Source: an uncultured Gammaproteobacteria bacterium
Lineage (GTDB): Bacteria; Patescibacteriota; Microgenomatia; Levybacterales; UBA12049
Assembly (NCBI GenBank): GCA_964408485.1
Contig: CAYOZJ010000002.1
Coordinates: 69,235-133,234 of the forward strand
Direction of reading: 5' to 3'
DNA: 64,000 nucleotides
The notes beneath the pieces are model-generated. The model was not told the origin of the DNA. It ran no database searches and saw only the letters and a list, made by a program, of their open reading frames with translations. Positions 2,663 through 63,745 of the stretch are shown piece after piece (position 1 is the stretch's first letter; each line of letters opens with the position of its first letter). The translations under genes were made by a program, and so were the position numbers.

Positions 2663-3700
2663 ATGATTCGTGTTGCAATTAATGGATACGGAAGAATTGG
2701 AAGAGTAGCACACAGAATCATGCTTCTTAAACATCCTGAGCTTGATGTCGTTGCAATCAATGCAGGGACTTCAACAGATTTGAAGGGTTGGATGTATCTT
2801 CTTAAGTATGATTCTAATTATGGAATATTGGATGGTGTTGACTTAGATATACGACTAAATACAGATAAGGCAAATCCCAACCTTCTCGGCAAGCTTCTGG
2901 TAAATAAAAAAGAAATTTCTGTTTTTTCCCAGAAAGACCCGAGTCTTCTTCCATGGGGGGATTTAAAAGTAGATGTTGTTATTGAATCCACGGGACACTT
3001 TCTTACGAAAGAAGATGCAAAAGCCCATATATCTGCAGGAGCAAAAAAGGTTGTTATTTCAGCTCCAGCTAAGGACGACACGCCTCCATACGTTGTATCC
3101 GTGAATGAAAAAGAGTATCGGGGAGAACAGATTGTGAGTAATGAATCATGTACAACCAATTGTATTACACCAGTTGCCAAAATAATGGAGGATGCATTTG
3201 GTGTAGAGAAAGCAATGATGACAACAATTCATGCATACACATCAGACCAGGAGCTTCAAGACGGGGGACACCATGATTATCGTCGGGCACGGGCTGCTGC
3301 AAAAAATATTGTCCCAACAACAAGCGGGGCGACTCTCGCTGCAGCACAAGTAATCCCTTCCCTTAAGGGTATATTCAATGGCCTTGCTCTTCGTGTACCT
3401 GTATCAACAGGATCGCTTTCTGATTTTACTTTCCTAGTAAAGAAAAATACAACAGTTGAGCAGGTAAATACTGCATTTAAAAAAGCAGCAAAAAATCCAA
3501 CATTTAAGGGAATTTTAGAAGCAACAAATGAGCCACTTGTTTCCTCAGATATTATTGGGAATTCTCATTCATCTATTGTTGACTTATCACTGACGCAAGT
3601 TGTGGGAGGGAATATGGTCAAAGTAATTGCGTGGTATGACAATGAATGGGGATATGCGCACAGATTGGTAGAATTAACGAGTGAAATTGGAGGAAAATAA
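2663..3700 (+). CDS. gap: glyceraldehyde-3-phosphate dehydrogenase
   Basis: MIRVAINGYGRIGR NAD-binding N-terminus, catalytic SCTTNC, C-terminal WYDNEWGY. Confidence 0.95.
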   Translation: MIRVAINGYGRIGRVAHRIMLLKHPELDVVAINAGTSTDLKGWMYLLKYDSNYGILDGVDLDIRLNTDKANPNLLGKLLVNKKEISVFSQKDPSLLPWGDLKVDVVIESTGHFLTKEDAKAHISAGAKKVVISAPAKDDTPPYVVSVNEKEYRGEQIVSNESCTTNCITPVAKIMEDAFGVEKAMMTTIHAYTSDQELQDGGHHDYRRARAAAKNIVPTTSGATLAAAQVIPSLKGIFNGLALRVPVSTGSLSDFTFLVKKNTTVEQVNTAFKKAAKNPTFKGILEATNEPLVSSDIIGNSHSSIVDLSLTQVVGGNMVKVIAWYDNEWGYAHRLVELTSEIGGK

Positions 3701-4293
3701 TGGACACAAATCCCGCAGACTTACGATTCCGCTTAATTTCCGTTTCCGGAAGAATTGCCTCAGGGTCAACTACGTTAGCCAAAAAACTCGCTCATGCACT
3801 ACGGTGGCAGCGGATGGAAGGTGGAGATATTTTCTGGGAAGCTGTACGGAGTAAATTAGGTCTTGATGTTAAGGATACAGGACTTCGCCCAGATGAGGAA
3901 GATTTAGCATTTGAAGCAATGCAAAAAGAAATTCTTACCACACGGGACCATATGGTTGTTGAAAGTAAACTTGCGGGGTTTGTTGCAAAGGATTTGAAAG
4001 ACGTGTTTCGGGTATTGGTTATTTGTGTTGATCCAGCAGGTGCAGATCAAACTAATATCCGTATCGATAGGCTTGTAAATCGCGAGCACATGAGTATTGC
4101 AGAGGCAAAAGAAGAAGTATTAGTAAGGGAGCAATCAGACGTTGATAAATGGAGACGTCTCTATGCTCCAACAGAGGCAGATTGGACATTTTGGAATGAG
4201 AAATATTACGACTTAGTTATAAATACGTATGCTCATGATCCAGACGAAGTCTTAGCTCTTGTTTTAGAAGCAGTTGGATATACTACGCAATAA
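3700..4293 (+). CDS. archaeal-type cytidylate (CMP) kinase family protein
   Basis: P-loop ISVSGRIASGSTTLAKKLA. Overall length and layout resemble ~190-aa archaeal CMK. The ATG overlaps the gap stop (ATAATGG). Confidence 0.55.
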   Translation: MDTNPADLRFRLISVSGRIASGSTTLAKKLAHALRWQRMEGGDIFWEAVRSKLGLDVKDTGLRPDEEDLAFEAMQKEILTTRDHMVVESKLAGFVAKDLKDVFRVLVICVDPAGADQTNIRIDRLVNREHMSIAEAKEEVLVREQSDVDKWRRLYAPTEADWTFWNEKYYDLVINTYAHDPDEVLALVLEAVGYTTQ

Positions 4294-8024: not shown

Positions 8025-8222
8025 TGCATTCATAGCAGTATGCAGTAAGAATTATGGGCATATTGCGTAGAGCATAAAGCATAATTCATATATTTATACA
8101 TTGGGCAAACACCGTGTAATTCGGTGGAAGTGCCGCTACTGTAAATCCAGAAAACCATGTATAAATCATTCTCGAGCAAGAACGTTTTTGGGCACGTCCT
8201 TCTCGAGAGAGAGGGATTTTTT

Positions 8223-18145: not shown

Positions 18146-19015
18146 TTAAAGTTCGGTGAGGTGGGTATTTTCTTTTGCTCGGTCCGGGACAAATTCTAAA
18201 TATCTTTCTGTTGTAGAAAGTCTTTTGTGTCCAACAATTTTGGAAAGAAGGACCAACGATACGCCGTGTTTTAAGTGGTGGGCGATAAATGTGTGTCGAA
18301 GGTCATTAACCTTTGCACCTTTAATTTCGGCTAATCTAAAGTATCTTTCAACTGCTGTTCGGATATTTCGGATTAAGAATGGTCTGCCAGATTTGGTAAC
18401 AAAAATTCGCTCTTCAGCAACTGCAGGCCTGCCTTTTATGTATCTTTCCAATGATTCTTTTGCAGACTTATTAATTGGGACAACTCGTTCTTCATGCTTT
18501 TCAAATGGTCGAATGCGAAGACCTTCTGCAAGGACATCGTCCATACGAAGTTCGGCTAATTCGCCAATTCTAATTCCTGTTTGAAGCAAAAGCTCAATAA
18601 CAGCAAACATTCTCACATCATTTCGAGAGGCATCTCTGAGTGCTCGGTATTCTGTAGGTGTCAAAATGCGAGGTGCTGCGAGTGTGTATTGTGGGTGAGC
18701 AACTTGTAACGATGGGTCTTCTGAGACTAACCCTTTAGATTTTAAGAATCGGTAAAATGTGCGGATGGAATTAATCTTTCGGGAAAGGGACTTTGGTGTA
18801 TAACCAGAGCCTGAAAGTTTTGCTAAAAATGCCTCAATGTCTTCTTTTGTGATTCCTTCAATCTCTTTTTTCCCATTTTCTGCCAGAAAAGTAACCAACT
18901 GATCGATGTCTTTGGTGTATGCTACAATGGTAGCGTTTGATCTGGATTTTTCCTTGAGGAAATCGACAAATTGAGTCTTCGCGACGTCTAAAGTGAGTGT
19001 TGCCATAGTGTACAA
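18146..19015 (-). CDS. tyrosine site-specific recombinase, XerC/XerD-like
   Basis: N-terminal SAM-like domain. Catalytic-domain motifs LRHTFIAHHL and HKRLSTTERY (R-H-R-Y). At 289 aa it is Xer-sized. Confidence 0.85.
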   Translation of the reverse strand: MYTMATLTLDVAKTQFVDFLKEKSRSNATIVAYTKDIDQLVTFLAENGKKEIEGITKEDIEAFLAKLSGSGYTPKSLSRKINSIRTFYRFLKSKGLVSEDPSLQVAHPQYTLAAPRILTPTEYRALRDASRNDVRMFAVIELLLQTGIRIGELAELRMDDVLAEGLRIRPFEKHEERVVPINKSAKESLERYIKGRPAVAEERIFVTKSGRPFLIRNIRTAVERYFRLAEIKGAKVNDLRHTFIAHHLKHGVSLVLLSKIVGHKRLSTTERYLEFVPDRAKENTHLTEL

Positions 19016-23253: not shown

Positions 23254-24657
23254 ATGAAGATAAGCGAATTACATACAAAACGAATTGCTATTTTGGGTCT
23301 TGGTGTAGAGGGATTAGCAACGGCACAATATTTTTTAGAACATAAGATTGCCTTTTCCATTATTGATGAAAAGTCATTTACCGAACTTTCTGAAGGAGGG
23401 GATTTAAAGAATGCTTTAGAAAAACTTAAAGAGAATACTATTCCACTCGTTTTGGGAGAAGTTCCCACAAAAGAGCAGCTAGCTCAGTACGATGTACTTG
23501 TAAGAGCACCTGGAATCTCTCTGAAGAAAGATTATCTGCGAGGATTTAGCGGTAGCATTACTTCTGCAACTAAGCTCTTTTTTGACAATTGCCCTGGGAA
23601 AATTATTGGTGTAACAGGGACAAAAGGAAAGGGAACAACCAGCACATTGATCTATGAAATGCTTAAAAGTGCAGGAATCGACGCATATCTTGGCGGCAAC
23701 ATAGGACTGCCTCCATTATCATTTTTGGATACAGTAGATGATCAATCTATTGTTGTTCTGGAGCTTTCTAGTTTTCAATTAGAAGACCTTCAAAAAAGTC
23801 CCCACATTAGTGTCATGCTTATGGTAACGCAGGAACACTTAGACGGTTTTGGAAATCAAAATTATCACAGCTCAATTCGTGAGTATGTTGATGCAAAAAG
23901 AAATATTGTCAGATTCCAAACAGCAGATGATATGGCAATTCTTAATACAGACTATCCTGCCACTACAGAATCAGCTGGTGTTACCTCGGCTCAGGTTGCG
24001 TGGGTGAGTAGATACAAGCCTGTTGGAACAGGGTGCTTTGTGAGAGACAATGAGGTAATTCTTCGCAGCAATAATCAGGAGACCAAAGTAATTGACGCAG
24101 CTGATATTTTTCTTCCTGGAGGACATAATTTAGAAAATATCTGTGCAGCAACTATGGCTGCGTATTTTGCAGGCGTTGATGTTGCTGAAATTGCATCAGT
24201 TCTCAAGACCTTTAAAGGCTTAGAACACCGGTTGGAGTTGGTTAGGGAGTTGGATGGTGTTAGATATTATGACGATTCTTTCTCAACGGTTCCTGAGACT
24301 GCTATTGCTGCAATTCAAGCATTTAGTAATCCAGAAATTTTAATCTTGGGGGGGTCAAGCAAGAAATCAGATTTTACTCAGCTTGGAAAGCTTATTAGCG
24401 AAACACCAAATATAAAAGCAATTATTGGGATTGGAGTAGAATGGCCAGTCATAGAATCAAGAATCAAGAATCAAGAATCAAGAATAAAAATAGTGACAGG
24501 GTTAACAACCATGAAAGATATTGTTGAGACAGTCAGGAAATTAAGTGAGCCAGGAGATGTTGTGCTTCTTTCTCCAGCCTGCGCATCATTTGGGATGTTT
24601 AAGAATTACAAAGACAGAGGCAATCAGTTTAAAGAGCAAGTAAACAAATTAACCTAA
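23254..24657 (+). CDS. murD: UDP-N-acetylmuramoylalanine--D-glutamate ligase (carries in-frame repeat insertion)
   Basis: ILGLGVEGLATAQYF plus GVTGTKGKGTTSTLIYEML. Contains an inserted ESRIKNQESRIKI peptide from a GAATCAA tandem repeat. Confidence 0.9.
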   Translation: MKISELHTKRIAILGLGVEGLATAQYFLEHKIAFSIIDEKSFTELSEGGDLKNALEKLKENTIPLVLGEVPTKEQLAQYDVLVRAPGISLKKDYLRGFSGSITSATKLFFDNCPGKIIGVTGTKGKGTTSTLIYEMLKSAGIDAYLGGNIGLPPLSFLDTVDDQSIVVLELSSFQLEDLQKSPHISVMLMVTQEHLDGFGNQNYHSSIREYVDAKRNIVRFQTADDMAILNTDYPATTESAGVTSAQVAWVSRYKPVGTGCFVRDNEVILRSNNQETKVIDAADIFLPGGHNLENICAATMAAYFAGVDVAEIASVLKTFKGLEHRLELVRELDGVRYYDDSFSTVPETAIAAIQAFSNPEILILGGSSKKSDFTQLGKLISETPNIKAIIGIGVEWPVIESRIKNQESRIKIVTGLTTMKDIVETVRKLSEPGDVVLLSPACASFGMFKNYKDRGNQFKEQVNKLT

Positions 24658-24756
24658 TTGACCTAATTTACCTAATTTCTAAAGAAATCCCAATTTCAAA
24701 ATTAGTTATTGGGTATTTTTTAGGTTAATTAGAAATTAGTAATTAGAAATTTTTGT

Positions 24757-31841: not shown

Positions 31842-31906
31842 ACGAGTATTAAGGGGTTAGTATTAAGTATAAAGCAAAATTTCCTTAATACTTTATACTA
31901 AATTCT

Positions 31907-36294: not shown

Positions 36295-37320
36295 TTGTCA
36301 TGGTATACTACAAAGTACATGAAAAAGTTACTTCTGATTGATGGAAATGCCATTTTACACCGTGCATTTCATGCCTATCCACCAGTATTTTCTGACAAAG
36401 AGGGTAATCCTACAAATGCTATTTATGGCTTTTATGCAATGCTTTTAAAAGTTATGGAGGAGGTAAAACCAGATTTACTCACCATTTGCTTTGATCAAGG
36501 TGCGCCGACTTTTCGCATGAATATGTATGCTGGGTATCATGCCAATAGGCCAAAAATGCAGGACACATTGGGAGTACAGGTCGAGCCCTTGCGTGAGTCT
36601 TTGCGTAAAATAGGAATTCCCGTTGAAGCAATCGATGGATATGAAGCAGATGATTTAATTGGGACATTATCTCATCAAGCGTCAAGCGTAAGGCGTAAAG
36701 GGGAAAGTTTGGAAACAATAATCCTAACAGGTGACAGGGATCTTTTGCAGTTAATTAACGAGCATACCAAAGTTCTTATGCCAATAACAGGAATTACGAA
36801 GTCTGTCTTAATGGATGAAGGAGCAGTTGAGGCAAAATACGGCATAAAGGCAAGTCAGGTAATTGATTACAAAGCCTTAGTTGGCGACCCGTCTGATAAC
36901 TATCCAGGTGTTGGGGGAATAGGTCCTAAAACAGCGGCAACACTTCTTAAAGAGTGGGAAACATTGGAGAATTTGTATACCCATTTGGGAGATATAAAAC
37001 CTGAGTTGAGTCAAAAATTAGCTCAAGATGCAGAGCAGGCAATGCTATGCAAGAAGTTGGCAACCATTCAGCTAGACGTACCTGTTCATTTAGATATAAA
37101 GAAAGCAGATGTAGACAATTTTTCTCTGGAAAAGTTTTTGGATATTTTCGAGCACTTCAATATTCACTCATTGGTTAAGAGGCTTAGTCTAGCGCTAGGA
37201 AGTGAAGCACCTATAACACGAAGCGAGACGAAGCAATCTAGTTTAAAGAAAGATTCTGGACAAGCCAGAATGACGAAAGAAGAAAAGAAGAAAGAGGATA
37301 GTCAACTAGAGCTACTTTAG
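36295..37320 (+). CDS. 5'-3' exonuclease (stand-alone Pol I 5'-nuclease/FEN domain) with repeat-derived C-terminal tail
   Basis: LLLIDGNAILHRAFHA and GDRDLLQL, H3TH region. The C-terminal ~40 aa (SETKQSSLKKDSGQARMTKEEKKKED) derive from repeat DNA. Confidence 0.85.
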   Translation: MSWYTTKYMKKLLLIDGNAILHRAFHAYPPVFSDKEGNPTNAIYGFYAMLLKVMEEVKPDLLTICFDQGAPTFRMNMYAGYHANRPKMQDTLGVQVEPLRESLRKIGIPVEAIDGYEADDLIGTLSHQASSVRRKGESLETIILTGDRDLLQLINEHTKVLMPITGITKSVLMDEGAVEAKYGIKASQVIDYKALVGDPSDNYPGVGGIGPKTAATLLKEWETLENLYTHLGDIKPELSQKLAQDAEQAMLCKKLATIQLDVPVHLDIKKADVDNFSLEKFLDIFEHFNIHSLVKRLSLALGSEAPITRSETKQSSLKKDSGQARMTKEEKKKEDSQLELL

Positions 37321-39446: not shown

Positions 39447-40727
39447 ATGCCTAGAATAGCCCTGGTTCACGATTATATTAAAGAATACGGTGGAGCGGAA
39501 AGGGTACTAGAGACTTTGCATGAAATGTATCCCAATGCACCTGTATTTACCCTAGTATATTGTCCAAAATTCTTAGGACCACATAAAGATAGATTTAAGA
39601 ATTGGGATATCCGCACATCATTTCTTCAGTCTATCCCTTTTAAAGAAAAATTTATTAGCATCTTTCGGCTTTTTGCCCCATTTATTTTTCCATTTTTCAA
39701 CTTTGCTGGGTACGATGTAATCATTGTAAGCGCAACAGGGGCATATAGTCCCAACGTAGTTGGGACAAGAGGTAAGAAGGAAGAGGTAAGAAGTAAGGAA
39801 AGTGACCATACGCCATACGCCATACGCCATACGCCGTATCACATCTGCTACTGCCACACGCCGCCCAGATATTTGTATGGATACGCAACAGCTAGAGAAC
39901 TAAAAAAGAATTCTCTTATTCGATTATTGGCAGAATGGATGAATAAATGGCTTGTGCGAGTAGACAAAAAGTCCAGTAAAAATGTGGATTTGTATATTGC
40001 CAATTCAGAAGAAGTACGAGCACGAATTAAGAAATTTTATAACAAAGATGCAATTGTTGTGTATCCACCAGTTGATGTTCCTTCAGTGTCATTCCTGCGA
40101 AGGCAGGAATCCAGGAAAGGAACTGGATCCCGGATCGGAGTCCGGGATGACAATTTTTATCTAGCAGGCGGGCGTCTTGCCAGGCCAAAGCATTTCGATT
40201 TAATCATCAAGGTAGCAAATGAATTAAAGTTGTCCCTCAAGATTTTTGGGAAAGGATTTGCAGGGTATGGAGAAGAGCTGTATGATTTGGCAAATAGACT
40301 ACAGCAAGCAGACTACAGTAAAGAAGCTGTAGTCGGTAGTCCGAAAGCTGTAAGCGTTATTACGTTTTTGGGAGAAGTAACAGATGAAGAAAAAATACAT
40401 CTTATGTCCGGTGCTAAAGCATTTATTATGAGTAGTGAAGATGAGGATTTTGGCATAACACCAGTTGAGGCAATGGGGGTTGGGACACCGGTGATTGCAT
40501 ATAAGAGTGGTGGACTTAAAGAAACAGTTATTGATGGCAAGACAGGAGTATTTTTTGACATGTTATCTGCAGAAAGTCTAATTGGGGCAATAAAGAAGTT
40601 TGAAGCCCTTCGACAAGCTCAGGGTAAAAGACTGTCTGAGAATTGTATTGCGCAAGCGCAAAAATTTAGCAAAGAGAACTTTGAAAAAGGAATTCGTTCT
40701 GTCATCTCTAAAATCTTGTCATCCTGA
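39447..40727 (+). CDS. glycosyltransferase family 4 (GT1-fold) with multiple in-frame repeat insertions
   Basis: MPRIALVHDYIKEYGGAERV N-terminus and C-terminal EDFGITPVEAMGVGTPVIA (E-x7-E region). Inserted peptides EEVRSKESDHTPYAIRHTPYH and SFLRRQESRKGTGSRIGVRDD. The stop lies inside a GTCATCCTGAG repeat. Confidence 0.8.
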   Translation: MPRIALVHDYIKEYGGAERVLETLHEMYPNAPVFTLVYCPKFLGPHKDRFKNWDIRTSFLQSIPFKEKFISIFRLFAPFIFPFFNFAGYDVIIVSATGAYSPNVVGTRGKKEEVRSKESDHTPYAIRHTPYHICYCHTPPRYLYGYATARELKKNSLIRLLAEWMNKWLVRVDKKSSKNVDLYIANSEEVRARIKKFYNKDAIVVYPPVDVPSVSFLRRQESRKGTGSRIGVRDDNFYLAGGRLARPKHFDLIIKVANELKLSLKIFGKGFAGYGEELYDLANRLQQADYSKEAVVGSPKAVSVITFLGEVTDEEKIHLMSGAKAFIMSSEDEDFGITPVEAMGVGTPVIAYKSGGLKETVIDGKTGVFFDMLSAESLIGAIKKFEALRQAQGKRLSENCIAQAQKFSKENFEKGIRSVISKILSS

Positions 40728-40942
40728 GCTTGCGAAGGATATATTCTTCACTTTGTTTAGAATGACAAAGGAAAAAGATTTCTCACTTCGTTCGAAATGA
40801 CACTCTTCTTACTTATTTCTAACCTCCTCTTACACAATATTAATTGTAATTTCATTTAAGAGTTCTATCCTGTCAGGAAGCTGTTGGGGAATCGTTGGCC
40901 ATAGGTCAAGTTAAAGATTCTCTGCAGGAATATAATTAGCTT

Positions 40943-42776: not shown

Positions 42777-43997
42777 ATGATCCTCAGGTCAATTCTTCTT
42801 CAGCATTTTCGCAATTATACCCAGGAAAAGTTTGATTTTTCAGAAACTCTCACTCTTATTATTGGAGTAAATACTGCCGGTAAAACCAATCTTTCTGAGG
42901 CAATATATTTACTTGCAACAGGGAAGAGTTTTAAGGCAGGTAATGATACATTTATGATTGCTTTTGGACAAGAGATTGCAAGGGTGGGAGGATTGCTGGA
43001 AGATGTCATCCCCGACCAGATCGGGGATCCAGGAAAAGAACTGGATTCCCGCTTTCGCGGGAATGACAGTAAAAAAAAGGATGACGGTTTGGACAAGACT
43101 AAAATAGAAGTAGTTATCGCCAGTCCTCAGGCAACTGGAGGGAGATTTAGCAAGAAATTTCTTATAAATGGTGTTGGAAAATCGCGGAATAGTTTGCGAG
43201 GTATGCTCCCAATTGTCCTTTTCCGGCCTGAAGAATTGGACATTATTATTGATGGACCAAGTCTCAGGCGCGCATTTCTTAATGAAGTACTTGAGCAGGC
43301 AGATAAAGAATATGCCCAAGCATTATCTGTCTTCGAACGGTCTCTTAGGCAGCGCAATGCGCTTCTTCGTATAGCTCAGGAGACTGGAAAACGAAATAGT
43401 GAGCAATTTGATTATTGGGACGAGCTTCTTATTGAGAGTGGGCAGACAATTACACAAAAGCGTGAAGAATTTTTGGTATTTATCAATTCATCCACTCATG
43501 ATATTTTTCCTTTACAGACTTTTTTCGATAAGAGTATTATTTCTCGCGAACGGTTAGATGGATATGAGATGGCAGAAGTCGGGGCAGGGGTGACCCTTGT
43601 AGGGCCTCACAGAGATGATTTCTTTGTGAACATGGAATATCCTGGTTTTAATCCCAACCCTCATCCCAGCTCGCCGAGGCAAGCTGACCTTCTCCCAAAA
43701 GGAGAAGGAGAACAAGGTGATATCCACTACGTGGATATACGATTTTTCGGTTCGAGGGGGCAGCAGAGACTTGCAGTGCTCCAGTTAAAAATGCTCCAAA
43801 TACAGTATTTGGAAAAGAAACTAGGAGTATTGCCACTTCTTATCTTGGATGATATTTTTTCTGAATTAGATAGTAACCATATTCAGCTTGTTTTGGATAA
43901 CGTGAAAGGATGCCAAATCATTCTAACCACAACGCATAGGGAGTTTATTCCACAAAAGGTATTACGTGAGGCTAGTGTGGTAGAATTAGAGCGATAA
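42777..43997 (+). CDS. recF: DNA replication and repair protein RecF with in-frame palindromic-element insertions
   Basis: MILRSILLQHFRNY, Walker A GVNTAGKTNLSEAIY and C-terminal LILDDIFSELD. Inserted VIPDQIGDPGKELDSRFRGNDSKKKDDG. Confidence 0.85.
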   Translation: MILRSILLQHFRNYTQEKFDFSETLTLIIGVNTAGKTNLSEAIYLLATGKSFKAGNDTFMIAFGQEIARVGGLLEDVIPDQIGDPGKELDSRFRGNDSKKKDDGLDKTKIEVVIASPQATGGRFSKKFLINGVGKSRNSLRGMLPIVLFRPEELDIIIDGPSLRRAFLNEVLEQADKEYAQALSVFERSLRQRNALLRIAQETGKRNSEQFDYWDELLIESGQTITQKREEFLVFINSSTHDIFPLQTFFDKSIISRERLDGYEMAEVGAGVTLVGPHRDDFFVNMEYPGFNPNPHPSSPRQADLLPKGEGEQGDIHYVDIRFFGSRGQQRLAVLQLKMLQIQYLEKKLGVLPLLILDDIFSELDSNHIQLVLDNVKGCQIILTTTHREFIPQKVLREASVVELER

Positions 43998-44093
43998 TTG
44001 TTATATTGTTATCGCTCGCAATGCTCGCTTATTGTTACATGGTTAACAATTTAGCCATATAGCAATTTAGCAATTTTTTAACGCAGTTAGTCT

Positions 44094-44972
44094 ATGCAAC
44101 AATTTGACATAAAACAACTGAAACAGCTTTACATTCCACCAGCTGGATCTCATAAAGGGGACAATGGAAAGGTTATGGTTATTGGCGGAAGTCAGCTTTT
44201 TCATGCTGCATCACTTTGGTCTTTGGAAATTGCATCAAAAATTGTAGATATGGTTTTTTACTCATCAGTTGATGCAAACAATGCACTCGTTGAAAAAGAA
44301 AAGGAAGCATTTAGAAATGGGATTATTGTTCCAAGAAATAAAATTGAAGATTACATTGCAGAGGCAGATAGCGTACTTATTGGGCCAGGATTACCAAGAG
44401 AGAATGGCTACGAGGCAGGCGATGACGATACAAAAATTCTCACCGAAAAACTTCTTAAAAAATATCCCAATAAGCGATGGGTAATTGATGGTGGTAGTTT
44501 GCAGGTGATTAACCCTGACCTTATTCCACAAAATGCTATTCTTACGCCACATCATCAAGAATTTGAAAGACTGTTTGGAAAGCGTCAAGCGTCAAGCGTC
44601 AAGCGTAAAGGAGAGAAAGAGATTGCCGCGGTCGCTAAAGACTCCCTCGCAATGACGGTTGGGGAGATGGCAAAGAAATATCACTGTATTGTTTTACTGA
44701 AAGGTCCAGAAGATGTTGTTTGTTCGGAAAATGAATGTGTAAGAGTTCCGGGAGGTAATGCAGGTATGACAAAAGGTGGAACAGGAGATGTGCTTGCAGG
44801 GCTTACAGCAGCTTTATATTCCCAAAACGCTGACGCATTCTTAGTAGCAACTTCTGCAAGCTATATCAATAAAAAAACAGGTGAGTCTCTTTTTGAAAAA
44901 CAAGGCTATTACTTTAACTCAAGTGATTTAGTGAAGGAAATCCCAGGAGTCATGAAAGAATTACTGCTCTAA
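44094..44972 (+). CDS. ADP-dependent NAD(P)H-hydrate dehydratase / YjeF C-terminal carbohydrate-kinase-like domain protein
   Basis: GDNGKVMVIGGSQLFHAASL and GGTGDVLAG. Carries the insertion KRQASSVKRKGEKEIAAVAKDSLAMTVGE. Confidence 0.75.
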   Translation: MQQFDIKQLKQLYIPPAGSHKGDNGKVMVIGGSQLFHAASLWSLEIASKIVDMVFYSSVDANNALVEKEKEAFRNGIIVPRNKIEDYIAEADSVLIGPGLPRENGYEAGDDDTKILTEKLLKKYPNKRWVIDGGSLQVINPDLIPQNAILTPHHQEFERLFGKRQASSVKRKGEKEIAAVAKDSLAMTVGEMAKKYHCIVLLKGPEDVVCSENECVRVPGGNAGMTKGGTGDVLAGLTAALYSQNADAFLVATSASYINKKTGESLFEKQGYYFNSSDLVKEIPGVMKELLL

Positions 44973-45266
44973 TTTTTCTTTTATTTTGCTTAAATTTATT
45001 GTTATAAGTACTGCAAGAATCGTAATAATCACTGCGTAGATAAGAAGAGAGAAGATGCCGTAGTTTGCGGGGAAGAATTTTTTAATGTAGTCATTCACAA
45101 CGCTTTGAATAACGTTATTCCATGCGAGTGCAGCAACTAATCCAAATCCGCTTGTTGCAAGGGTGATCATTTGCGTAACAATAGCAATTTGCAATTCCTT
45201 TTTTTGTGACTTTGTTGGGATTGGTTTGTCCGATTTTTCAGCCATGCTATAATTGTACCATAACAA
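44961..45266 (-). CDS. small two-TM membrane protein
   Basis: 101 aa with two hydrophobic helices. Confidence 0.4.
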   Translation of the reverse strand: MLWYNYSMAEKSDKPIPTKSQKKELQIAIVTQMITLATSGFGLVAALAWNNVIQSVVNDYIKKFFPANYGIFSLLIYAVIITILAVLITINLSKIKEKLEQ

Positions 45267-45354
45267 ATTATTTGTTTATTTCGAGTTAATGCGTTAACGG
45301 GTTAGATTTCTTAACTCGTGAACTCGTTAGCCCGTTAATATTTTAATAAAAATT

Positions 45355-46407
45355 ATGTATACCCCAACCTACACAATAAGCAATACAATCCTTCGTAATA
45401 TTGGTCTTATTGAGGCTGCAAAACAGGTAATTGATAGCGCTCCACTTCTTCCGTACTATGAAAAGAAATTTCGCGACGATGCTATGGTAAGAGCTGTCCA
45501 TTATGGCACGCATATTGAAGGAAACGAACTGTCACTCAATCAGGCAGAAAAAGTTTTGTCTGGTCAGATTGTTGACGCACGCGACCGAGATATTCAAGAG
45601 GTCTTAAATTATCGAAAGGTTATGGAGATGATCGGTTCATCGGAAATCGGGAATCGGGAATCGGGAATTGACGAAGAACTTATTTTTAAACTCCATAAGC
45701 TTACAGTCACTAAAGTTTTACCCGAAGAGCAGTCTGGTAATTATCGAAAAACAAAGGTAGTTATTCGCAATAGCCGCAGTGCAGAAGTAGTATTTACGCC
45801 GCCTTCTCCTGAGGAAGTAGCTGGACAAATGAGTGATTTTATTGCATTTATACAAACTCAGTCAGGTCAAGATATTCATCCAATATTGAAATCTGGAATT
45901 GTTCATTATGAATTCGTGAGAATTCATCCGTTTGTCGATGGAAATGGTCGGGTAGCACGGGCACTCTCGACTCTTATTCTTTTTTTGGAAGGGTATGACA
46001 TTCGACAGTTTTTCTCTTTGGAAGAATACTTTGATAAAGATGCTCTCAGCTATTACGAGGCACTGCAAAGTGTTGGGAAAAATAATGGAGACGTGACAAA
46101 TTGGCTTGAGTATTTTACTCATGGTCTTGCCTATGAGTTGGGAAGAATCCGGGAAAGAGTAGAGCATGTATCTGTAGATAATAGGCTTAAGCAGCGACTT
46201 GGTGGCAAGCCAATGATGCTGACAGACAGGCAGTTGAGGATTGTTGAATATATTCAAGAAACAGGTTTTCTGCAAAATCAAGCATTTAAAGAATTATTTC
46301 CAATGATTTCTGAAGACGCAGTGCTTTTGGATTTAAAAGAACTAGTTAAAGCTGGTCTTATTAAGAAATCAGGTGTCACTAAGGGCGCAAGGTATGTGAT
46401 GAGCTAA
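45355..46407 (+). CDS. Fic family protein (AMPylase-type) with C-terminal wHTH
   Basis: Fic motif HPFVDGNGRVARAL. Contains inserted IGNRESGI repeats from GAATCGG heptamers. Confidence 0.85.
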   Translation: MYTPTYTISNTILRNIGLIEAAKQVIDSAPLLPYYEKKFRDDAMVRAVHYGTHIEGNELSLNQAEKVLSGQIVDARDRDIQEVLNYRKVMEMIGSSEIGNRESGIDEELIFKLHKLTVTKVLPEEQSGNYRKTKVVIRNSRSAEVVFTPPSPEEVAGQMSDFIAFIQTQSGQDIHPILKSGIVHYEFVRIHPFVDGNGRVARALSTLILFLEGYDIRQFFSLEEYFDKDALSYYEALQSVGKNNGDVTNWLEYFTHGLAYELGRIRERVEHVSVDNRLKQRLGGKPMMLTDRQLRIVEYIQETGFLQNQAFKELFPMISEDAVLLDLKELVKAGLIKKSGVTKGARYVMS

Positions 46408-47730: not shown

Positions 47731-49521
47731 ATGACCTTTGCGAAATTAGCCTCGTATTTTGAAAAATTAGAAGCAACTTCCTCCCGTTTAGAGCTTATCC
47801 GTATTCTCTCAGAACTCTTCAAAGAAATAAAAACTCCAGATGAAATAGAAAAGGTATGTTATTTGGTTCAGGGTCGTATTGCGCCATTTTTTGAAGCAAC
47901 AGAAATCGGAATGGCAGAACGGACTGTGGCACAGTCCGTTGCTACAGCATTTAATGTCGAAAAAGAGAAAGTCTTAAAAGAATATAGTAAGCGTGGAGAT
48001 TTAGGGTTGGTTACGTATGAGCTTGCGCAAGAAGTAAGAAGTAAGAATTATGAATCAAGAATAACCATAGATGAGGTGTTTGAAACTTTAATAAAAATAG
48101 CAAAGACTAGTGGGGAAGGAACTGTTGAAAAACGACTAACATTATTAACAGATCTTTTGCAAAAAGTAGACGCACTTTCAGCAAAGTTTCTTGTACGCAT
48201 TCCACTAGGTAATCTTCGTTTGGGAATTGGTGACCCAACTGTTTTAGATGCACTCGCGACAGTAAAATTGGGAGATAAAACCCAGCGACATTATTTAGAA
48301 GATGCATACAATAGGACATCTGACTTAGGACTTATTGCAAAAACTCTTTGGTCAGAAAAAAGCGCAATGAAAGCATTGGGTGCAGTCGAAAAATTAGAAG
48401 TAACAGTTGGTAAGCCAATTCGAAGCGAATTGTGCGAGCGTCTTCCTAGTCCTGAAAAAACAATAGAAAAAATGGGGACAGTGGATTCACAGTTTAAATA
48501 CGATGGATTTCGCGTACAAATTCATAAAAATGGAAATGAAATCTCGCTTTTTTCTCGTAATTTAGAAAATATGACCCATATGTTTCCAGAGCTTATAGAG
48601 GGAGCCAAGAGACAAATTAAAGCGCGTAGCGCAATTCTGGATAGCGAAGCATTAGCATACATACCTGAGTCTGAAGAATTTTTGCCTTTCCAGGAGACAA
48701 CAAAACGAAGACGTAAGCATAATATAGAAGAAACAATGGCCAAGCTTCCACTTAAGTCATTTGTTTTTGACATTTTGTATAAAGATGGCAAGTCACTTAT
48801 TGGCGAACCTTTAGAAAAGCGTTTGGAGATTTTGTCAAAAACCCTTCGGCCAGCTCAGGGCAAGCAGTTTAACGATAGTGTTCTTTTTCCAGCAGATACT
48901 AAAAAGATTTCTGATGCAAAGGTGTTATCTCTTATGCTTGATGACGCAATTTCTAAAGGCTTAGAGGGAATAGTAGTAAAGAAATTGAATAGTCTTTACG
49001 AAGCAGGCGCGCGCAATTTTAACTGGGTAAAGCTAAAGCGTAACCAGTCTGGTGAGTTAACAGATACGGTTGACTGTGTGATTTTAGGATACATTTTTGG
49101 CAAAGGAAAGCGAACAGCATTTGGCGCAGGAGCATTATTGGTTGGTGTGTATGATAAAGCATCAGATAGCTTTGTAACAGTAAGTAAGATTGGAACAGGA
49201 TTAACTGATGAGGAGTGGAAAAGTATTAAGGAAAGGACAAAAGGATTAGAACTTTCTCATAAGCCAGCTCGGGTGAGCTCTATTATAGAACCAAGTGTTT
49301 GGGTAAAGCCTGAGATTGTTATAGAGGTCTTGGCAGATGAGATTACAAGAAGTCCTATTCATACAGCAGGAGCTACTTTGGAGAACGGAAAAGTCGTTGA
49401 GCCAGGATATGCTCTCAGATTTCCACGGTTAGTTAACTTTCGGGATAAAGATAAAAAATCAGAAGATGCAACGGATGTGAAAGAGTTGATTGAAATGTAT
49501 AAGAGTCAAGGAAAGAAGTAG
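47731..49521 (+). CDS. ATP-dependent DNA ligase
   Basis: Adenylation motif KYDGFRVQIH (KxDG), OB domain. Inserted heptamer-derived QEVRSKNYESRI. Confidence 0.85.
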   Translation: MTFAKLASYFEKLEATSSRLELIRILSELFKEIKTPDEIEKVCYLVQGRIAPFFEATEIGMAERTVAQSVATAFNVEKEKVLKEYSKRGDLGLVTYELAQEVRSKNYESRITIDEVFETLIKIAKTSGEGTVEKRLTLLTDLLQKVDALSAKFLVRIPLGNLRLGIGDPTVLDALATVKLGDKTQRHYLEDAYNRTSDLGLIAKTLWSEKSAMKALGAVEKLEVTVGKPIRSELCERLPSPEKTIEKMGTVDSQFKYDGFRVQIHKNGNEISLFSRNLENMTHMFPELIEGAKRQIKARSAILDSEALAYIPESEEFLPFQETTKRRRKHNIEETMAKLPLKSFVFDILYKDGKSLIGEPLEKRLEILSKTLRPAQGKQFNDSVLFPADTKKISDAKVLSLMLDDAISKGLEGIVVKKLNSLYEAGARNFNWVKLKRNQSGELTDTVDCVILGYIFGKGKRTAFGAGALLVGVYDKASDSFVTVSKIGTGLTDEEWKSIKERTKGLELSHKPARVSSIIEPSVWVKPEIVIEVLADEITRSPIHTAGATLENGKVVEPGYALRFPRLVNFRDKDKKSEDATDVKELIEMYKSQGKK

Positions 49522-51374: not shown

Positions 51375-51512
51375 GCTTCTTGACTTTTGATTGCAAATTT
51401 CTCCATACTAAATATGTAGTAAGTATTAGGTATTACGTATTAAGTATATTAAGGAACTTTATTTATACATACTACTTACTACTTAATACAAAACGGGAGG
51501 GGGGTGAAATAT

Positions 51513-51950: not shown

Positions 51951-52002
51951 TTTGTTTATAAACAAATAAAAAAAGGATACGGTGAAAACCTGTGTCCTTT
52001 TT

Positions 52003-52235
52003 TGTCATTTCGAACAAAGCGAGAAATCTCATTCAAGTATTTTTCTTCTTCTGTACTTTTGTGCCGACAAAAGATACCAAAAACTCTCGCCAAGGTCTTG
52101 TTCGAGCTTTCAAAAAAGAGCTCCAAAGCTAAAAGTACGCAGTTCGCTTTCACTTTCTTTACGCTTTTATGCCCTTTTTCTTATGCACTCACTGCAAATT
52201 GGCGAATAAGAACCATTTACATGAGGAGTATAATA
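52003..52235 (+). repeat. ~200-bp dispersed repeat copy A (upstream of pth)
   Basis: Near-identical core to 63530..63745 (..CTCTCGCCA.G..CTTGTT..AGCTTTCAAAAAAGAGCT.CAAAGCTAAAAGTACGCAGTTCGCTTTCACTTTCTT.ACGCTTTT..). Confidence 0.7.
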
Positions 52236-54576: not shown

Positions 54577-54858
54577 ATGAAAATAACGCATCTTCTTATT
54601 TTTGGCAAAGTTCATGGGGTAGGGTTTCGCAAATATATAAAACATAACGGGACCAAGCTTGGATTAAAAGGATGGGTTAGGAATCTTCCCGAAGGGACGG
54701 TAGAAGCAGAAGTATCGGGATCAGAAGAACAAGTTGGAAGGCTTATCTCCTTAGCAAAAAAAGGCCCATTCTTGGCAGAGGTAACTAATGTTGAAATTCA
54801 AGAACATGAAAAAGATTTTCCGTATGAAGAATTTCTTCTTAGGCACGATATTGACTAA
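54577..54858 (+). CDS. acylphosphatase
   Basis: FGKVHGVGFRKY, GLKGWVRNLPEGTVE. Confidence 0.8.
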   Translation: MKITHLLIFGKVHGVGFRKYIKHNGTKLGLKGWVRNLPEGTVEAEVSGSEEQVGRLISLAKKGPFLAEVTNVEIQEHEKDFPYEEFLLRHDID

Positions 54859-54895
54859 TTATTAGTTGATTAACGGGTTAATGTGTTAACGAGTT

Positions 54896-55285
54896 ATGAA
54901 AATAACCAAATTTGAAGACCTCGATGTTTGGAAATTAAGTTTAGAGATAACAAAGTTAATATACGATCTAACATCTAAGAAATTATTTTCTCAAGATTAC
55001 GGTTTAAAGGATCAAATAAGAAGGGCAATTGTATCTGTTAGTTCTAATATTGTTGAGGGGTTTGAAAAAAACAATAATAATGAATTTATTAGGTATCTTC
55101 TGATTGCGAAGGGATCTGTTGGGGAGGTAAGGAATCAATTGTATGTGGCTTTAACAGTACAATACATTTCTCGAGATGAGTTTGAACAAATTAATCCAAA
55201 GCTTTTTATATTAGCAGATCAAATTGGTAGGTTTGTTATTTATTTAAAGACGAAACGAAATAACAAAGAATTCCAAACCCGTTAA
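54896..55285 (+). CDS. four-helix-bundle protein (TIGR02436 / 23S rRNA IVS protein / Avd-like)
   Basis: FEDLDVWKLSLEITKLIY...SNIVEGF...LLIAKGSVGEVRNQL signature of the family. Start and stop codons lie inside flanking palindromic repeat arms. Confidence 0.8.
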   Translation: MKITKFEDLDVWKLSLEITKLIYDLTSKKLFSQDYGLKDQIRRAIVSVSSNIVEGFEKNNNNEFIRYLLIAKGSVGEVRNQLYVALTVQYISRDEFEQINPKLFILADQIGRFVIYLKTKRNNKEFQTR

Positions 55286-55304
55286 CCCGTGAACTCGTTA
55301 ATTA

Positions 55305-56459
55305 TCAAATCCTCTTAATAATCCTGGAGACAAAATACGCCCCTAGGATTGTTGCTATTGGGACTGAGAGCATAAGGCCAATACTTCCGGCAAGTGTACG
55401 CACAATTTCCTCCCCAAATTGCTGATTATTAATAATTACCCACAGTGGTAAATGGCTGGGGTTAAGAAGTAAGAAGATAAAAATAGGAAGAGAAGTGCCT
55501 GCATATGCCAGGACTAGTGTATTAATGAGTGAGGCAATATGCTCTTTGCCAATATTCATGCCATGCTCAATAAGGTGTAAAAATGATTGATCTTTATTTG
55601 CTTTAAAAAGGGCAAAAATGCTAGCAACTTGGGTGGTGGTAATGTCATTAAGTGCACCTAATGTACCAATAATAATGCCACCAAGGAGGATTCCTTGCGG
55701 GTTAATACTTATATTTGGTGCAATCTCCAGCAAATAACTGTCTTCTGTGCCAAGGCCTGTTAGGTGAGCAATATTTACAAATAAAACAGACAAGAAATAG
55801 GTTGCAATAAGCGCAAGAAAAGTAGATGCAACAGCAATGGTCGTTTGCTTGGAAAAGCCGTGGGCAAGAAATGTTGTGACAAATAAAATAACAAATGATC
55901 CAAGAAGAGAAGTGGTGAGAGGGTCTGCGTTGTGGAAAAGAATTTGCGGAACAATGTAGCCAATAATAACAAAAAGACTTACTCCAAGGCCAAGGAGTGC
56001 CCCAAGCCCCTTCTTACCGGCAATAAGAAAGATACAGAGAGCAAAGGCAATAAAAAGGCCAATAAGTTCTGGAATTCGGTAAACATCGGTAATAGTGTAG
56101 CGGGTTTGTCCATCAGGTCCGACATTTTTATCTACAACAACTGTTTGACCGTCGTGATATTTAACAAACGCAGCAAGTCTTGCATCAGAGCCTTGATCGA
56201 GAGTAATCTCTTTACCGTTGTCAGCTCCATCTAAAATTTTCAGTCGCAATGTTTGGGTAATAGTTGTGTATCCGCCATCGGTAATAAGCGTAGATTCTTT
56301 TAAAACGCGCTCAACAACTGCTTTTTCATAAATTTCCTTATTGGTCATTGCTTGTCCCGAAGAAGGTGGGGTTTGGGCAAGTGCTTTAGGTGCAGCATAT
56401 GGCAAATAGCATATGGCACATAGGAGGAAACCAAAAAGAAAAGAGAAGACTTGTTTCAT
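55305..56459 (-). CDS. YibE/F family membrane protein
   Basis: Signal/TM N-terminus, then many TM helices. LVLAYAGTSLPIFIFLLLN typical of YibE/F. Confidence 0.6.
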   Translation of the reverse strand: MKQVFSFLFGFLLCAICYLPYAAPKALAQTPPSSGQAMTNKEIYEKAVVERVLKESTLITDGGYTTITQTLRLKILDGADNGKEITLDQGSDARLAAFVKYHDGQTVVVDKNVGPDGQTRYTITDVYRIPELIGLFIAFALCIFLIAGKKGLGALLGLGVSLFVIIGYIVPQILFHNADPLTTSLLGSFVILFVTTFLAHGFSKQTTIAVASTFLALIATYFLSVLFVNIAHLTGLGTEDSYLLEIAPNISINPQGILLGGIIIGTLGALNDITTTQVASIFALFKANKDQSFLHLIEHGMNIGKEHIASLINTLVLAYAGTSLPIFIFLLLNPSHLPLWVIINNQQFGEEIVRTLAGSIGLMLSVPIATILGAYFVSRIIKRI

Positions 56460-57687: not shown

Positions 57688-57817
57688 GTGTCATCCTGAG
57701 CAAGCTAGAGGATATATTCTTTCCCGACTCGGGACTAGGTTCGCAGAACCGTTGCACACGTTCAGAATGACAATAGGACTGGATCCCGGATCGGAGTCCG
57801 GGATGACAAATTAATAT

Positions 57818-59637: not shown

Positions 59638-59735
59638 GAAGCAAGAATCATGAATTAAGAATTATGCAGAGGGTTTATTAAAAATAAAGTACCTTATATC
59701 CATAATTCATACTTCTTGATTCATAATTCATATTT

Positions 59736-62327: not shown

Positions 62328-62484
62328 AATAAAGAGTATACCGAGTTCTTAACAAATATGTCAAGAAACAAAAGCATATTTCTATTGCTAAATTACTATA
62401 TTGCTAAATTGTTATTAACAATATAAGAATTTGTTAATTTAACAATTTCGTTTTACTCAATGTGACAGTTGTTTGTAATACTAC

Positions 62485-63529: not shown

Positions 63530-63745
63530 ATTGTCATTTCGAACAAAATGAGAAATCTTTTCTTTTTAACTTCTCTTGTACCGACAAGAGAAGCAGAAGC
63601 TCTCGCCAGGCCTTGTTCCAGCTTTCAAAAAAGAGCTTCAAAGCTAAAAGTACGCAGTTCGCTTTCACTTTCTTAACGCTTTTCCGCTCTTTTTCTCTCG
63701 CAGTCACAGCGGATTGGCGAATAAAGACCGCGGAAAATTTACCTC
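63530..63745 (+). repeat. ~200-bp dispersed repeat copy B (upstream of partial ORF at 63780)
   Basis: See copy A at 52003..52235. Confidence 0.7.

Follow-up and report, generated by a model that had tools for sequence, protein, structure and literature searches.

A four-helix-bundle gene framed by inverted octamer arrays is probably an intervening-sequence-type selfish element outside rRNA

How does a small gene, of a protein family known from interrupted 23S rRNA genes, come to lie exactly between the arms of an inverted repeat and between two protein-coding genes? This question is raised by positions 54859..55304 of the 64,000-nucleotide stretch of DNA analyzed here (the window), where a gene for a four-helix-bundle (4HB) protein fills the gap between the convergent genes acyP and YibE/F. 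It touches two puzzles that are about 30 years old: the role of the open reading frame (ORF) carried by rRNA intervening sequences (IVSs), and the origin and the binder of the heptamer repeats found in cyanobacteria, Xanthomonas and Beggiatoa. According to our analysis, the locus is probably an IVS-type selfish element that resides outside rRNA, between two convergent protein-coding genes, and is read through from acyP.

The element measures 446 bp. A single 4HB gene is flanked by terminal inverted repeats of about 30-37 nt, in each of which about three TTAACGNG octamers follow one another in tandem. The parts of the element are the following:

54859..54895, plus strand: left terminal inverted repeat, an AT-rich box TTATTAG followed by TTGA / TTAACGGG / TTAATGTG / TTAACGAG / TT, abutting ATG
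54896..55285, plus strand: 4HB protein gene, 129 aa, pI 9.4 (basic), PF05635 / TIGR02436
55275..55304, minus strand: right terminal inverted repeat, AAACCCG / TTAACCCG / TGAACTCG / TTAA TTA

The start and stop codons of the gene sit within the innermost repeat units. On the left, the flank reads TTAGTTGA TTAACGGG TTAATGTG TTAACGAG TT and then ATG, while on the right the stop codon (TAA, 55283-55285) falls inside the first inverted unit. The original prediction, made from the sequence alone, had placed the gene between the arms of a palindrome, with both codons in the flanks. All the strings it quoted are present and both statements hold. The inverted arms are also real, but they turned out to be tandem arrays of an 8-nt unit, as Tandem Repeats Finder (TRF) reports a period of 8 at 54870-54896 in the left arm and at 55276-55301 in the right arm. 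The left arm begins 1 nt past the acyP stop codon (TAA, 54856-54858) and the right arm ends directly before that of YibE/F (TGA, minus strand, 55305-55307), the entire spacer between the two convergent stop codons being the element itself. Its GC content is 30.3%, compared to 39.4% for the window. Exact copies of TTAACGGGTTA and GTGAACTCGTTA occur in the 64 kb only in this element and in a palindrome at 45281; when up to two mismatches are allowed, TTAACGGGTTA gives 25 matches in the window versus 14 expected.

The two arms (54866-54896 and 55275-55304) are computed to form a 26-bp duplex of -26.9 kcal/mol, and this long-range stem is found in both the minimum free energy and the centroid structures of a 466-nt fold. 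The predicted stem encloses the 4HB ORF, with the start and stop codons at its inner end; a long terminal stem around an ORF, which is a hallmark of IVSs, is therefore seen here. The 37-nt spacer upstream of the gene shows no promoter-like or terminator-like site, and scans for promoters and terminators inside the element gave nothing above chance.

The 4HB protein matches PF05635 (23S_rRNA_IVP; E 4e-31, 107.8 bits, cut-off 33.8), which is its single Pfam match, and TIGR02436 ('four helix bundle protein'; E 1e-28, 99.7 bits, cut-off 24). A six-frame hidden Markov model (HMM) search returned this gene as its single match, making it the sole 4HB gene of the window. The protein also matches PDB 2GSC at 9e-16. 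Its AlphaFold2 model (pLDDT 91.5) has four long helices, and the best Foldseek matches are 2GSC (XCC0516, rmsd 1.4 A) and 2RLD (BT_0352), followed by the Bordetella phage Avd (4DWL) and the Avd of a diversity-generating retroelement (DGR) ribonucleoprotein (8UB7), with TM scores of 0.74-0.88 at 8-10% identity. As modeled, the protein is an up-down four-helix bundle of the IVS/Avd fold, which agrees with the family originally assigned to it. Both 2GSC and 2RLD contain 5 chains, and Warrier et al. (PMC4990558) cite Lin 2006 for a pentamer. Close homologues number more than 1100, nearly all of about 129 aa and about 70% identical, and those that are named belong to Patescibacteria; the PF05635 family as a whole splits at 50% identity into at least 21,546 clusters. 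An exact look-up of the 129-aa protein gave no matching database record. Between elements of candidate phyla radiation (CPR) bacteria, codon positions 1+2 are identical at 0.74 of sites, compared to 0.32 at fourfold-degenerate sites, where 0.29 is expected at saturation. The protein is thus under purifying selection and the elements are old.

To establish whether the element is an insertion, the same site was compared in four loci (L081, L082, L083, and L085) obtained from a metagenome scan with the YibE/F protein. The gene order Pth-orf101-VTT-acyP, convergent with YibE/F-Fur, is kept in all four, and at the acyP/YibE/F site of these loci there is neither a 4HB gene nor TTAACGNG arrays. Their spacers range from 0 to about 335 nt and are unrelated in sequence. 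As these syntenic relatives lack both gene and arrays, 54859..55304 is an insertion. DNA similarity between the window and L001, the closest genomic relative found, is confined to 54860-55302. The original prediction had proposed a cassette-type insertion with attC-like boundaries; the discrete insertion stands, given its absence from the four relatives, but the attC part does not, as no integron integrase or cassette array was found. Two further hallmarks are lacking: Rfam finds no rRNA in the window, hence no insertion into an rRNA helix as in IVSs, and no transposase occurs among the scanned window proteins that could be the cognate enzyme of a miniature inverted-repeat transposable element (MITE) or another element with terminal inverted repeats.

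The architecture recurs throughout the CPR. We collected 80 genomic loci (L001-L080) and applied a pattern-free scan, in which a tandem run was defined as at least three units of period 7 or 8 and 50 segments located 500 nt away served as controls. Tandem runs were detected in 47/54 left flanks and 34/55 right flanks, whereas none of the 50 controls had any (Fisher p = 2e-21); arrays thus occupy 81/109 arms, compared to 0.06 arrays per kb elsewhere. The last left unit usually reaches the ATG (…TTAACGAGTTATG), and the inverted array either starts at the stop codon or extends over it. Unit positions 1-4 (TTAA) are conserved to at least 97% in left arms and at least 89% in right arms, positions 5-6 (CG) to 81-89%, and only the last two positions, both purines, vary, which leaves TTAACG as the conserved core. 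Since the unit is conserved despite saturated fourfold sites, the arms are constrained in sequence, beyond their pairing. Arms of the same locus nevertheless pair better than arms combined across loci (-23.4 versus -19.0 kcal/mol; 0/5000 permutations), and the repeat period agrees between both sides of the same element.

The surroundings of these CPR loci are diverse. Among the 60 full-length loci, the 111 neighbor proteins fall into 97 clusters, of which the sole recurrent one consists of GT4 glycosyltransferases; this recurrence reflects only how common that gene family is. In 35 loci the 4HB gene points the same way as both of its neighbors, while in 2 it opposes both (binomial p = 1e-8). 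Given this co-orientation and the lack of a promoter-like site, the 4HB gene of the window is probably read through from acyP. The GC content of the element lies below that of the host in 50/52 loci (p = 4e-10), yet tracks it (rho = 0.80). A search for conserved rRNA motifs found no rRNA context in L001-L080, which sets these loci apart from classical IVSs. No 4HB gene of this subfamily was found by six-frame HMM search in 183 kb of unselected CPR loci, and in the loci examined no arrays bracket other cargo genes or a transposase.

The repeat unit goes with the gene. In one Roizmanbacteria genome, two loci carry units of different length, 8 nt in L020 and 7 nt in L043, each on both arms. Six divergent 4HB paralogues on CPR contigs have their own unit each, namely AAGAATT, ATTGCT/AACAAT, GCTTTCA, TTAGCTTC, and TTTTGAC (twice), and 2 of these six match unit families of the window (B and C, below). 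Outside the CPR, a tblastn search of plasmids gave 17 loci with an intact 4HB gene, a small and plasmid-biased sample from which L121 (truncated gene) was left out. They are mostly cyanobacterial, with Riemerella, Gemmatirosa, and Azospirillum among others. Strong tandem runs were present in 20/34 flanks versus 3/34 controls (p = 2e-5), and the median flank-to-flank duplex energy was -53 versus -38 kcal/mol (p = 0.013). The units found in these non-CPR loci were:

GTAGGGA: Nostoc edaphicum, between nrdB and nrdA
GGGTGTA: Calothrix
GGGAAAA: Geminocystis and Nostoc
GGGAACA and AGGAGTC: Nostoc
GGAGATA: Picosynechococcus, between cmr2 and cmr3
TTCAAGG: Riemerella
CCTCCTGC: Gemmatirosa

The Azospirillum locus (L128) is a true 23S rRNA IVS (Rfam LSU, 2479 bits) with GACGGAA/GACAGAA heptamers on both sides. 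At the level of sequence, these loci show a gene-repeat pairing that is apparently general and subfamily-specific in CPR bacteria, Cyanobacteria, Bacteroidota, Gemmatimonadota, and Proteobacteria. The occurrence of the same pairing in at least five bacterial phyla suggests that the 4HB family may be the partner of 7-8-base tandem repeats. A possible identity between the CTTCAAA units flanking a 4HB gene on a Nostoc 7120 plasmid and the published TTCAAAA heptamers was considered and dropped, the units matching too poorly.

Some of the plasmid elements lie inside operons (L114, L115, L116, and L127, from Nostoc edaphicum, Anabaena sp. 90, Pseudanabaena galeata, and Picosynechococcus PCC 7003), at nrdB/nrdA (antisense), cas6/cas4 (twice), and cmr2/cmr3, which suggests that elements are tolerated there. 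Many database 4HB proteins (e.g. P0129, P0160, P0191, P0226, P0232, and P0252) have an N-terminal extension of about 37-40 residues before the conserved domain; in L128 (1426-1500), this extension corresponds to the heptamer array upstream of the gene, read from a start codon that lies earlier in the same frame. As the arrays are open in frame, this suggests that 4HB start codons are widely mis-called.

Copies within one genome define the ends of the element. L009 and L013, which belong to the same genome, are 90% identical over a block of 472 nt whose ends are sharp; it consists of the gene with 42 nt upstream and 39 nt downstream, beyond which similarity stops. Each end of this block carries an AT-rich box (ATTATTTATTATTTAG) and then three units. 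Three consecutive spacers on the L009 contig hold elements, one full, one of about 180 nt, and one of about 100 nt. The copy of about 180 nt (3621-3798) retains both termini and the last ~25 nt of the coding sequence, while that of about 100 nt is the palindrome only and resembles the 45281 element of the window. L010 and L048 likewise contain inverted pairs without a gene. Discrete ends, multiple copies, and presence/absence, the hallmarks of a mobile element, are all seen. That the gene-less 3621-3798 copy keeps the coding end indicates that miniatures derive from full elements by internal deletion, and not that genes entered palindromes which were already there.

The window itself contains about ten tandem-unit palindromes of five unit families (A-E) and one 4HB gene. 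Look-ups with the first and last genes of the window, made to reach cognate genes of families B-E beyond it, gave just 3-4-kb Logan contigs of SRR9179560. The palindromes other than the element, to which no strand is assigned, are:

45281..45341: family A, gene-less miniature, TTAATGCG TTAACGGG TTAG-ATTTC-TTAACTCG TGAACTCG TTAGCCCG TTAA
38300..38380: family B, gene-less palindrome, ATTGCTNA arm / TTAACAAT arm
43997..44084: family B, gene-less array/palindrome of TTAGCAAT units, between RecF/SMC-like and NAD(P)HX dehydratase genes
62384..62448: family B, palindrome, ATTGCTAA ATTACTAT ATTGCTAA ATTGTTA / TTAACAAT ATAAGAAT TTGTTAAT TTAACAAT
59638..59732: family C, heptamer palindrome of AAGAATY units, between znuC-like and znuB-like genes
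8045..8092: family C, short palindrome, GTAAGAATTATG ... CATAATTCATA, directly upstream of an AdoCbl-II riboswitch
31842..31906: family D, heptamer palindrome of GTATTAA units, between convergent genes
51410..51493: family D, heptamer palindrome, GTATTAA x4.6 / TACTTAC x3.4, between convergent genes
24635..24756: family E, palindrome of 9-nt units, left ACCTAATTT x3.6, right TTAGGT / TTAGAAA units

The family A miniature had originally been described as an empty copy at 45283..45345. It is real and belongs to the same element family, although its coordinates were off by about 2 nt. The alignment of the joined flanks of the 4HB gene with this copy scored 42 on the plus strand and 36 for the reverse complement, compared to a mean of 14 and maxima of 30-32 for dinucleotide shuffles (0/1000); 5000 random window segments averaged 13 and did not exceed 28. 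The miniature lies in the 88-nt spacer of the divergent DUF5654 (44961..45266, minus strand) and Fic (45355..46407, plus strand) genes and folds into a hairpin of -21.3 kcal/mol (z = -3.8). With a promoter-like site at 45226-45253, the miniature would fall within the 5' untranslated region (5'-UTR) of Fic.

Other families can be related to 4HB paralogues found elsewhere. The unit family of 38300..38380 matches the flanks of the divergent paralogue in L018, and 62384..62448 aligns with the joined flanks of that paralogue at a score of 31 versus a shuffle maximum of 30 (0/1000). Within family B, 31 nt of the 43997..44084 palindrome are 94% complementary to 62384-62414. The family C palindrome at 59638..59732 keeps ...GAATTAAGAATTATG, that is, the 5' arm and start codon of another 4HB subfamily; this exact 15-mer, ATG included, is common to the palindrome and the 5' flank of the paralogue in L051. 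The left arm of the family E palindrome overlaps the 3' end of a MurD-like gene.

Heptamer arrays are also observed in frame within conserved housekeeping genes of the window (24453-24485, 36677-36700, 39767-39835, 44580-44610, 45639-45668, and 48029-48062), with 3.4-4.9 copies and several at 95-100% identity. Their hosts encode a MurD-like ligase, a 5'-3' exonuclease, a GT4 glycosyltransferase (two adjacent arrays), an NAD(P)HX dehydratase, the Fic protein, and an ATP-dependent DNA ligase. Arrays of the AAGCGTC family yield the nearly identical peptide QASSV(K/R)RKGE in two unrelated enzymes, and the one in the exonuclease falls at an insertion of 5 aa, as judged against Taq polymerase. Single in-frame arms were seen in other CPR genomes, in a LepA-like gene (L046, 4964-4984) and a GT4 gene (L011, 6579-6602).

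Taken as an IVS-type selfish element, the locus could work as follows. Transcription would reach it by read-through from acyP, as its anatomy suggests, and in the acyP transcript both arrays would pair into a double-stranded RNA stem of about 26 bp around the ORF. By analogy with the homologous rRNA IVSs, this stem would be an RNase III-type substrate, and a cut would free the element RNA from the host message. Because the stem resembles the RNase III substrate of rRNA IVSs, the element may be cut out of the message of its host and so burden the neighboring genes little. The 45281..45341 palindrome and about eight palindromes of the four other families would be gene-less miniature derivatives, an origin shown in the relative genome and extended here to the window. 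The 4HB protein, whose solved relatives are homopentamers, would recognize its own repeat unit on RNA or DNA. Such recognition might underlie the persistence or spread of arrays, the gene acting as the 'autonomous' partner of the gene-less ones. At the DNA level, mobility would possibly come from gene conversion between arrays, with the arms as homology, or else from an undiscovered trans-acting enzyme.

Several points weigh against this interpretation. RNase III cleavage of the element is proposed by analogy, no rnc gene is present in the window, and binding of the unit by the 4HB protein is a hypothesis. Conservation of the unit could also reflect a host factor rather than the 4HB protein, and Warrier et al. 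(PMC4990558) concluded that the S23p protein of Coxiella is probably not made. The presence/absence contrast is drawn with relatives that are 53-74% identical in YibE/F and not with near-identical strains. The scan of window proteins linked no transposase, recombinase or reverse transcriptase to the element, and a scan of a viral contig collection found no relative of it. No consistent direct repeat that could be a target-site duplication lies outside the arms in 30 elements, where AT-rich flanks make short matches uninformative. Finally, the architecture is not uniform: right-arm arrays are found in just about 60% of the CPR loci, arrays are direct rather than inverted in two non-CPR cases (Pseudanabaena and Gemmatirosa; L116 and L129), and there are none in Calothrix 7716 (L125).

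Could the protein instead be a domesticated host regulator that binds RNA or DNA, with the arrays as its operators, autoregulating its gene and controlling a dispersed regulon? The unit sequence is indeed conserved beyond neutrality and the protein is under purifying selection. Arrays often sit at start codons, here as well as in Beggiatoa and Nostoc (PMC4679880; bioRxiv 10.1101/2022.06.06.494920), and the 45281 miniature would lie in the Fic 5'-UTR. A conserved regulon is however at odds with the high turnover of these sequences: syntenic relatives lack gene and arrays, the neighbors at different loci are unrelated, the AT content of the element exceeds that of the host in 50/52 loci, and there are decayed copies as well as in-frame arrays in housekeeping genes. 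We consider this explanation unlikely, while noting that the regulator and selfish-element readings are not mutually exclusive. That generic host hairpins (REP-like, terminator-like or RNase III sites) flank an ordinary small gene by happenstance, the protein being unrelated to the repeats, appears quite improbable. Gene-less palindromes are admittedly frequent (about ten in 64 kb), and heptamer arrays are abundant in cyanobacteria and Xanthomonas with no reported gene link (PMC4692102). However, such hairpins would not account for 81/109 arms against 0/50 controls and 0.06 arrays per kb elsewhere, nor for an array type that follows the gene copy within one genome (L020/L043), with an own unit per 4HB subfamily. 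Gene and arms are common to intra-genome copies as one block, no intrinsic-terminator features were detected, and no unrelated small genes with such flanking arrays occur in the loci examined.

An integron-type cassette with attC-like sites, or an Avd accessory gene of a DGR, would fit a small promoterless ORF bounded by imperfect inverted repeats and an Avd-like fold. Against the cassette, there is no IntI and no cassette array; the sole tyrosine recombinase is Xer-like and located 36 kb away (18146..19015), and tandem octamers form the arms on both sides. The DGR, for which a search had been recommended alongside the original prediction, fared no better. No RVT-family match, and hence no reverse transcriptase, occurs in the 46 window proteins scanned, the flanks of the CPR loci not having been screened for this enzyme, and repeat scans found no pair resembling a template and variable repeat (TR/VR) near the gene. 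Both candidates were rejected for the window, and we regard this explanation as very improbable. A chance likeness of two AT-rich intergenic regions, in an AT-rich genome where TTAA words are common and TTAACGGGTTA with up to two mismatches is found 25 times versus 14 expected, is hardly credible in view of an alignment score of 42 against a shuffle maximum of 30 and of an architecture that recurs in dozens of independent loci.

The IVS-type selfish element may be one case of a broader rule, which we put forward tentatively. PF05635 proteins would be sequence-specific partners of 7-9-nt tandem repeats (STRR heptamers, Xanthomonas GGGAATC, CPR octamers), each subfamily having its own unit. The array-framed gene would be autonomous, and gene-less arrays and palindromes, ORF-less rRNA IVSs, and in-frame arrays would be its non-autonomous progeny, in a relationship similar to that of RAYT and REPIN sequences but based on a non-enzymatic pentamer. 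The window presents gene, cognate arms, and gene-less arm copies side by side, and both of the old puzzles merge into one testable hypothesis, a 4HB pentamer binding its own repeat unit. If true, this would define a very compact class of selfish element (about 450 bp), one that can reside inside operons, cas loci, or rRNA genes and costs the host little. It also bears on annotation, as 4HB elements may have given rise to many of the short, odd insertions seen in CPR proteins and of the so-called 'intergenic palindromes'.

Other features of the window were noted along the way. A second, unrelated class of G+C-rich hairpin repeats, which end in GACA or begin with TGTC, occurs at 40082-40156, 43041-43073, and 57778-57812 (for example GTCATTCCTGCGAAGGCAGGAATC and GGATCCCGGATCGGAGTCCGGGATGACA); the pair 40122-40156 / 57778-57812 is 97% identical over 35 nt. 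Further repeat regions lie at 52002-52214 and 63531-63729, and also at 40771-40802 on the opposite strand. They include a 122-nt direct repeat (52093-52214 / 63608-63729) of 87% identity, both copies being preceded by the motif TGTCATTTCGAACAAARYGAGAAATCT. The copy at 52002 forms a spurious N-terminal extension of the Pth ORF call, and the 52002/63531 repeat is a candidate leader, small RNA or other element. The AdoCbl-II (cobalamin) riboswitch at 8093-8165, adjoined on its 5' side by the family C mini-palindrome, is located just downstream of a B12-type ribonucleotide reductase gene and upstream of a DUF4430 / DUF6580 / cobalamin adenosyltransferase cluster. A VirD4/TraG-like coupling protein (12271-14640) and the Xer-type tyrosine recombinase (18146-19015) are encoded as well, neither of them linked to the element.

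How does the element compare with known systems? It resembles integron cassettes with attC in its small promoterless ORF and the imperfect inverted repeat at its boundary. It differs from them in having no integrase or cassette array, in its repeats on both sides made of tandem units, and in its dispersed single insertions.

Repetitive extragenic palindromic (REP) sequences and their REPIN doublets are reportedly linked to the REP-associated tyrosine transposase (RAYT), as said to have been described by Nunvar in 2010 and by Bertels and Rainey in 2011. RAYT is a HUH/Y1 single-strand DNA transposase. As in the REP/RAYT system, our element has a gene flanked by inverted short repeats that are also dispersed as gene-less palindromic doublets, with a cognate repeat per subfamily. 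Unlike RAYT, the flanked gene encodes a 4HB protein without known catalytic motif, so that the hallmark HUH-Y1 (IS200/IS605-like) transposase is absent, and the arms are arrays of 7-9-nt units instead of single REP hairpins.

The miniatures are close to bacterial MITEs, such as Rickettsia palindromic elements and the cyanobacterial Nezha, in being short, hairpin-forming, AT-rich, multi-copy, and non-autonomous, and in residing in spacers and sometimes in frame. Rickettsia palindromic elements are said to insert in frame into genes (a finding attributed to Ogata in 2000), and the in-frame arrays within window genes resemble them in this respect. MITEs, like the miniatures here, can derive from a longer element by internal deletion. 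The miniatures depart from MITEs in that no target-site duplication or parent transposase was identified and in that their termini are tandem units.

With the Avd proteins of DGRs (4DWL, 8UB7; PMC10053308), which are pentameric and act in an RNA-protein complex, the 4HB protein has the four-helix-bundle fold in common. It differs from them at 8-10% identity, no reverse transcriptase or TR/VR pair occurs in the window, and Avd genes have not been reported to be framed by tandem arrays.

Close relatives are the 23S rRNA IVSs with an S23p/4HB ORF (Leptospira, Coxiella, Brucella, Haemophilus; PMC4990558), whose protein belongs to PF05635 and whose length is similar to the 446 bp of our element. 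The Coxiella IVS, of 428 nt, has an S23p ORF and a 28-bp terminal stem that is cut by RNase III (Warrier et al. 2016, PMC4990558), with tandem GACAGAT heptamers of strain-variable copy number directly before the S23p ATG (PMC4990558). Both rRNA IVSs and our element have a terminal stem of about 26-28 bp around the ORF, tandem repeats before the ATG, and a weak or absent Shine-Dalgarno sequence, and rRNA IVSs are regarded as selfish. RNase III processing was demonstrated experimentally for the Coxiella IVS (PMC4990558) and is proposed by analogy for the element. In contrast to rRNA IVSs, the element lies between protein-coding genes, uses an octamer unit (TTAACGNG), and has gene-less miniatures dispersed in the same genome; its gene, unlike the decaying ORF of Coxiella (PMC4990558), is intact and subject to purifying selection. 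Related genes have been reported in other settings, with 23S_rRNA_IVP ORFs in CPR rRNA insertions (Tsurumaki et al., bioRxiv 10.1101/2024.02.27.582315) and 23S_rRNA_IVP-type genes inside cas operons (Zhang and Ye 2013, PMC3936711), a report to which the operon-borne plasmid elements described above add.

The last comparison is with published heptamer arrays. In X. campestris, Rehm et al. (2015, PMC4692102) listed 186 GGGAATC arrays that are unexplained, some 70 of them as convergent pairs. Their array #15 overlaps the start codon of XCC0516 (PMC4692102, supplementary file 2), which is the crystallized 4HB protein 2GSC, and the protein family is not mentioned. Further unexplained heptamers include the cyanobacterial STRR and Nostoc GGGGA(T/C)T (PMC4692102). 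A heptamer-binding partner still to be identified was postulated for the TAACTGA heptamers of Beggiatoaceae (MacGregor 2015, PMC4679880), and likewise for the TTTTGAA heptamers of Nostoc 7120 (Pradhan et al. 2022, bioRxiv 10.1101/2022.06.06.494920). We found no published description of the gene-array association as a general rule; this search left out most subscription journals, so that a prior description is possible. Like the arms of our element, the published arrays are made of 7-8-nt units, lie in spacers, often abut start or stop codons, often form convergent inverted pairs, and are occasionally found in ORFs. Their main-text descriptions make no mention of the 4HB family, whereas here the arrays are tied to one gene family with cognate units.

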